From Escherichia coli (GTDB lineage Bacteria > Pseudomonadota > Gammaproteobacteria > Enterobacterales > Enterobacteriaceae): a stretch of DNA of 64,000 bases. The stretch's first letter is position 1; each line of letters opens with the position of its first letter. The notes under the pieces were generated by a model. The model was given only the letters and a program-made list of their open reading frames with translations. It made no database searches and was not told the origin of the DNA. Positions 63,271 to 63,933 of this stretch are shown here, one piece after another. The position numbers and the translations under genes were made by a program. Location of the stretch: NCBI RefSeq assembly GCF_003018255.1, contig NZ_CP027440.1; one strand, written 5' to 3'.

Positions 63271-63933
63271 GTGAATTTTATTATTTTATTTATAAACAAA
63301 ACGCGTGTAGTGGCGTTAACGCCTGCGTTGCAACCTATTGATGGCGTGGCGGTGAGTTATATTGATGCTGCCGTAGCGTTGGGTAATACCATTAACGAAA
63401 TGGATAAATATTACATCCAGGAAAATTATAAAGACGATGCGTTTGCGAAAGGGAAAACGCTGCACCAGACATTCTTAAAAAATCTGGAAGCCTTTGAACC
63501 TGTAGCAGAATCTTATCATGCGGCGATTCAGGAAATTAATGACAAGCGCCAGCTTACGGAATTGAAAAATATTGAAGAAAGAGAAGGGAAAACATTCCAC
63601 TACTACTCTCTGGCAGTCATGATTTCAGCGAAACAAATTAATAACCTGATATCGCAAGATAAGTTTGATGCAGAAGCGGCAATGAAGAAAGTGTCTGAAC
63701 TGGAAACGCTGGTGGCGCAGGTCAAAGAAGCGGATAAAAGCGGCATGAATTTCTCGTTTATTAATTCGGCAGGCCAGTATCAACTCGAGGCTAAAAAATA
63801 CGTTCGCCGCATCAGAGATAAAGTCCCGTACTCTGACTGGGATAAAGAGCAACTTCAGGACGCAAACTCAAGCTGGATGGCCGAAGACTCATTTCCCGAG
63901 AGCATTATGCGAGTACAACGAAATGGTCGATGA
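63271..63933 (+). CDS. Hypothetical protein (possibly a yiiG-region homologue); start and true length uncertain
   Basis: ORF 63271..63933 (220 aa) with no recognisable signal peptide or catalytic motif; the real start may be an internal Met such as MDKYYIQ. Confidence 0.4.
   Translation: MNFIILFINKTRVVALTPALQPIDGVAVSYIDAAVALGNTINEMDKYYIQENYKDDAFAKGKTLHQTFLKNLEAFEPVAESYHAAIQEINDKRQLTELKNIEEREGKTFHYYSLAVMISAKQINNLISQDKFDAEAAMKKVSELETLVAQVKEADKSGMNFSFINSAGQYQLEAKKYVRRIRDKVPYSDWDKEQLQDANSSWMAEDSFPESIMRVQRNGR

Follow-up and report, generated by a model that had tools for sequence, protein, structure and literature searches.

We found that the 220-codon ORF lying directly downstream of fdhD, at the 3' end of the window (the 64,000-nt stretch of Escherichia coli DNA analyzed here), is very probably a nonfunctional remnant of the predicted lipoprotein gene yiiG, an ordinary pseudogene left by an old 478-bp deletion. 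The ORF matches the Pfam family DUF3829 (PF12889) with 226.7 bits against a cut-off (gathering score) of 26.8 (E = 5.9e-67) and, given this match, is not a chance ORF. The domain is nevertheless incomplete: the ORF spans profile positions 64–271 of 285 only, whereas K-12 YiiG (351 aa) spans positions 2–285 with its residues 73–349. When aligned with reference yiiG regions, a check proposed by the first-pass annotation, the DNA was ~97% identical to the 3' two-thirds of K-12 yiiG (codons 139–345) and lacked 478 bp on the 5' side. That annotation had described a truncated or divergent yiiG-region gene, possibly the remnant of a longer one. Truncation and the loss of a longer gene's 5' part, start codon and signal peptide included, are borne out by the alignment; divergence is not, as what remains of the gene is almost the same as in K-12. 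The NCBIfam models gave no match to the ORF, and a PDB sequence search with full-length K-12 YiiG returned nothing at E ≤ 0.01. The features of the locus are as follows.

62388–63221, plus strand: fdhD, intact, encoding the formate dehydrogenase accessory sulfurtransferase of 277 aa (TIGR00129, 340 bits; RefSeq annotation of an identical locus)
63226–63264, plus strand: stable hairpin 3' of fdhD with a 15-bp stem and a 9-nt loop (dG −19.9 kcal/mol, z = −5.97)
63250–63309, plus strand: former fdhD–yiiG intergenic DNA, accidentally open in the yiiG frame and containing the ATT at 63250 and the GTG at 63271
63271–63933, plus strand: ORF with the yiiG remnant, 220 codons, GTG start
63310–63317, plus strand: deletion junction with the one surviving copy of the 8-bp repeat GTGGCGTT; this octamer is the only part of the window matched by both K-12 flanks
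63310–63933, plus strand: yiiG remnant, K-12 codons 139–346 (of the last, the first 2 nt), DUF3829 positions 64–271
63895–63897, plus strand: +1 frameshift by an extra C (CCC vs. CC), from the alignment of alleles
63934–64000, plus strand: start of an alternative segment that bears a porin gene in strains sharing the allele and has no relation to the yiiG 3' end and frvR side of K-12
63934–64000 and beyond: variable interval between fdhD/yiiG and rhaM (in the comparison loci, L001 3835–5690, L002 4331–7311, L007 2626–5113 and L008 2638–3610)

The founding deletion and the start of the ORF

We mapped the deletion by aligning the window to a K-12 derivative (L002). In comparison with K-12, the window lacks the 478 bp between two copies of the octamer GTGGCGTT, of which the copy in the K-12 spacer ends 57 bp before the yiiG ATG and the other lies at codons 139–141; in its extended form, GTGnnGTGGCGTT, the repeat matches at 11 of 13 positions. 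The deletion took ~56–64 bp upstream of yiiG and the first ~138–140 codons. Lost with them were the AAGG Shine–Dalgarno sequence (7 nt before the ATG in K-12), the lipoprotein signal peptide MKRNLLSSAIIVAIMSLGLTGC with its LTGC lipobox, the Ala/Pro-rich linker and the first 63 domain positions. The same 478-bp 5' deletion was found against O157 and D5. In a megablast search, 63100–64000 matched 5424 of the 5426 complete E. coli genomes, and in K-12-like strains the match was split in two, with the halves ~477 bp farther apart than in the window.

A short direct repeat of which one copy remains is what a short-homology deletion classically leaves behind, and RecA-independent deletions of the slipped-strand type at direct repeats of a few base pairs are a standard route to bacterial pseudogenes. 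The deletion described here resembles those events in having its endpoints within a perfect 8-bp direct repeat of which one copy is kept, and it would have arisen through short-homology (slipped-strand or illegitimate) recombination; the difference is that the mechanism is here read from the structure of the junction only. The full-length gene is the ancestral form: the Pfam profile includes the 63 positions missing here, and YiiG-family proteins of other genera have been described as predicted lipoproteins (PMC11047544).

The yiiG promoter, which has been annotated (PMC11742677), was presumably removed by the same event. A promoter scan of 63000–64000 revealed no sigma-70-like site; the K-12 fdhD–yiiG spacer was equally negative for such sites, and the scan therefore cannot show that a promoter was deleted. 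Intact yiiG alleles differ in the length of the Ala/Pro-rich linker downstream of the lipobox by an in-frame indel of 15 bp (346 vs. 351 aa; strain D5, L010, ~2030, vs. the K-12 derivative L002), which explains why the megablast matches fall into two spacing classes, of 1296 and 1311 bp.

The start of the present ORF consists of DNA that was never part of yiiG. The gap to fdhD is 49 bp (63222–63270), and the coordinates confirm that the ORF begins just after a hairpin, as had been described at the first pass. Codons 1–13 (63271–63309) derive from the old intergenic spacer, which happens to be open in the yiiG frame: the stretch 63250–63309 equals the K-12 intergenic sequence except for one SNP at 63302, and the yiiG frame is open from 63250, downstream of a TAA at 63247. 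In other records of the same allele, a start at the ATT at 63250, seven codons earlier, gives 227 aa. The upstream extension is not conserved among the deletion-bearing strains. AR_451 and MS7163 carry a 1-bp deletion in the upstream T-run that closes the intergenic extension, and their ORFs therefore start at the junction GTG.

The 20 nt 5' of the GTG at 63271 are TTGCAGGACTTATTCATTTC, in which the sole AGGA is 12 nt from the GTG and within the hairpin stem. We looked for a Shine–Dalgarno sequence before the candidate starts at 63250, 63271, 63310 and 63400 and found it absent at all four, in agreement with the lack of a clear ribosome-binding site noted earlier. The absence of a signal peptide, likewise noted, also holds: the N terminus MNFIILFINKTRVVALTPALQ contains no Cys and therefore no lipobox. 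An internal Met, which had been suggested as the true start, finds no support, and we rejected it as the Met at 63400 has no Shine–Dalgarno sequence. Annotation pipelines choose three different starts (the ATT at 63250, the GTG at 63271 and the GTG at 63310), a disagreement that is expected where there is no real start.

The hairpin at 63226–63264 follows fdhD likewise in K-12 and in all strains compared, and its z score was computed against dinucleotide shuffles. It is probably the fdhD terminator with an interrupted U-tract; its tail reads UUCAUUUCGUGAAUUUU, and a strict terminator scan gave no call on it because the loop is 9 nt long and the T-run is interrupted. A terminator-like match on the minus strand at 63317–63300 was dismissed as being at chance level (1 found, 1.0 expected). 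A permissive Rfam scan of 61000–64000 found no RNA family in the fdhD–yiiG spacer or in the remnant. We also observed a 136-aa ATG ORF on the minus strand (62857–63267) that is antisense to the 3' half of fdhD and extends into the hairpin; it is kept in all strains only through its overlap with fdhD and has no annotation backing.

On the other side of fdhD, the formate dehydrogenase alpha-subunit gene (59144–62194, minus strand) is listed as two ORFs, 59144–61558 and 61607–62194, as its selenocysteine codon is an in-frame UGA. Exactly at the gap between the two lies a bacterial SECIS element (RF01989; 61554–61612, minus strand; 84.3 bits, above the gathering score). The divergent fdoG–fdhD spacer, the leader of the formate dehydrogenase operon, gave a match to the FdoG-1 5' UTR thermometer (RF02778; 62165–62363, minus strand) over the full length of the model, subthreshold with 32 bits against a gathering score of 50 (E = 1.9e-5).

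Later lesions, distribution and annotation

At the 3' end, the CCC at 63895–63897 reads CC in all seven other alleles compared (K-12, O157, D5, MLI106K3, PEC1021, AR_451 and MS7163). The extra C alters ...DSFPRALREYNEMVD... to ...DSFPESIMRVQRNGR followed by a stop and shifts the frame over the last ~20 codons. Removal of one C in silico restores ...FPRALCEYNEMVD... / ...DSFPRALCEYNEMVD..., and without the frameshift the yiiG frame would reach the TGA at 63998–64000. A 61-mer with the extra C has an exact match in 127 of the 5426 complete genomes.

The homology to K-12 ends at 63933, and from 63934 on the native last six yiiG codons are replaced. In Combat2C1, whose DNA is 100% identical over 63100–64000, the alternative segment carries a carbohydrate porin gene and then rhaM; the order in AR_451 (L003) is also porin, rhaM, and K-12 has frvR, frvX and frvB at the same place. 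The interval between fdhD/yiiG and rhaM varies among strains beyond the K-12-like arrangement (yiiG with frvR, frvX and frvB) and that of the window's allele (carbohydrate porin gene): strain I3 holds only an IS1 element there, and FDAARGOS_144 holds an 'ATP-binding protein' and a hypothetical gene, with no yiiG. In sum, the remnant shares with K-12 yiiG the chromosomal place directly after fdhD and a strong DUF3829 match, but it lacks the upstream region, the start codon, the signal peptide and lipobox, the linker and 63 domain positions, and its C terminus is frameshifted with the native last 6 codons replaced.

To count carriers of the deletion, we used a 44-bp blastn query across the junction (63296–63339), the halves of which fall below the E-value limit; a 120-bp megablast query was unsuited, as the two half-matches of intact genomes were merged into one place. 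The junction 44-mer was found in 1467 of the 5426 complete E. coli genomes (27%), among them 536, S88, Nissle 1917, A0 34/86 and O25b:H4-ST131. The deleted 478-bp segment was present in 3916 of the 5426, and the two classes together cover all but ~43 genomes. Two matches to the fdhD–yiiG locus, junction included, were on plasmid-labelled records of the complete-genome set and possibly represent mislabelled replicons or large chromosomal segments on plasmids.

Among the deletion-bearing strains, MLI106K3 and PEC1021 have the 478-bp deletion alone and keep the native 3' end and the frv operon. MS7163 has lost one A in an A-run, and this frameshift splits the remnant into ORFs of 64 and 145 codons. 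AR_451 shows a second event of the short-homology type, an in-frame deletion of 135 bp between two 10-bp AAGGGAAAAC repeats (L003 3290–3300, equivalent to window 63449–63583). By annotation, namely the label 'DUF3829 domain-containing protein' on a pseudogene, the Nissle 1917 and ST131 types share this 135-bp deletion. A decaying pseudogene looks just like this, with independent, lineage-specific lesions added to a founding deletion that all carriers share. The yiiG of Shigella sonnei (P0004/P0006, 260 and 257 aa) has an independent lesion: its N terminus and lipobox are intact, and the protein diverges and stops after about residue 253 (...SQEKFGDAANLLI), a form found in 242 contigs.

The history of the ORF can then be outlined as follows. 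The 478-bp deletion, with its endpoints in the 8-bp direct repeat, removed the DNA upstream of yiiG, the start, the signal peptide and the beginning of the domain. Fusion of the leftover yiiG to in-frame intergenic DNA behind the fdhD hairpin produced a 220-codon ORF mechanically. A later insertion of one C in the E. coli 536-type lineage shifted the C-terminal ~20 codons, and the native last codons and the downstream frv operon are replaced by the porin-bearing segment.

The presence of a yiiG pseudogene at this locus, common to a large E. coli clade, is already known and annotated, and it is no new biology. In Combat2C1, the stretch equal to 63310–64000 of the window is the RefSeq/PGAP pseudogene BWI82_RS16470 ('YiiG family protein; frameshifted; incomplete; missing N-terminus'), and equivalent pseudogene calls exist for AR_451, MLI106K3, MS7163 and PEC1021. 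The identical 220-aa translation is also deposited as ABG72065.1 from E. coli 536 ('conserved hypothetical protein'; UniProt 'Lipoprotein') and occurs in 787 contigs. Both entries have the same sequence as the window and differ in annotation only, as pseudogene and protein. A known protein aligning over its full length from the same start had been named at the first pass as evidence against a truncated or misplaced start. ABG72065.1 provides such an alignment only trivially, being an automatic call on the same allele and not an independent full-length homologue.

Loss of yiiG and the fate of the remnant

In a high-throughput E. coli screen, the resistance mutation targets included yiiG, described as an "uncharacterized lipoprotein", with promoter mutations and an ATG-to-ATT mutation of its start codon (PMC11742677). 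A YiiG-family gene of Stenotrophomonas maltophilia gained SNPs and frameshifts in antibiotic-evolved populations (PMC11047544), and a MarA ChIP peak was reported inside yiiG in ETEC (PMC5684230). With the remnant just as dead, the loss of yiiG could have been positively selected in the 536, S88, Nissle 1917 and ST131 types, if less of the YiiG envelope lipoprotein gave better survival or tolerance of antibiotics or host stress. The promoter and start-codon mutations of the E. coli screen (PMC11742677) and the frameshifts in S. maltophilia (PMC11047544) are consistent with such selection, as are the independent C-terminal truncation in S. sonnei and the occurrence of the deletion in 27% of complete genomes. 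The connection is circumstantial throughout, however, and one old deletion inherited by a successful clade yields an equal frequency without selection; we consider adaptive loss unlikely.

It is very unlikely that the truncated ORF is still expressed, through read-through of the hairpin, and that its product acts in the cytoplasm as a DUF3829 fragment whose role is new or residual. The sole observation leaving room for it is the level of constraint. The pN/pS ratio (Nei–Gojobori) over the retained 207 codons was 0.19–0.26 among porin-type deletion alleles, which differ by only 2–9 substitutions; between the window and AR_451 we counted 5 synonymous and 4 nonsynonymous changes, a ratio of ~0.2. 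This is barely above the 0.11–0.17 obtained among intact alleles and is not the ~1 expected after long neutral decay. The counts are tiny, however, and a bias toward transitions or recombination with intact alleles could account for the value.

The persistence of the ORF can be weighed in the same manner. A long ORF is retained in most deletion-bearing sublineages and survives two of the three secondary lesions (the 135-bp deletion, which is in frame, and the frameshift at the C terminus); against this, the three extra lesions are independent and occur in different lineages, and that of MS7163 shifts the frame in the middle of the gene. Some read-through from fdhD is conceivable, as the hairpin has no clean U-tract. 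Translation would then have to begin at the GTG at 63271, the ATT at 63250, the GTG at 63310 or the Met at 63400, none of which has a Shine–Dalgarno sequence, and the frame is not conserved across the start region. In any case, the domain lacks its first 63 positions, and the signals for export and lipidation are gone.

The yiiG remnant is probably not translated into a working protein; if it were translated, the product would stay in the cytoplasm with no lipid anchor and an incomplete domain. We infer that it is decaying neutrally. Neither an artefact of assembly or sequencing nor a divergent gene with no relation to yiiG need be entertained seriously: we found nothing in favor of either, the identical junction in 1467 independently assembled complete genomes excludes the former, and the ~97% DNA identity and the DUF3829 match at E = 5.9e-67 exclude the latter.

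Annotations should not list the 220-aa ORF as protein-coding, least of all as a 'lipoprotein'. The deletion junction, carried by 27% of the complete E. coli genomes, can conveniently serve to mark the lineage. That yiiG has been inactivated repeatedly and independently, by this deletion, by the secondary lesions and in S. sonnei, weakly hints that some pathogenic lineages can do without YiiG or pay a cost for it, and these inactivations, together with the hits under antibiotic selection, could motivate a functional test of YiiG.
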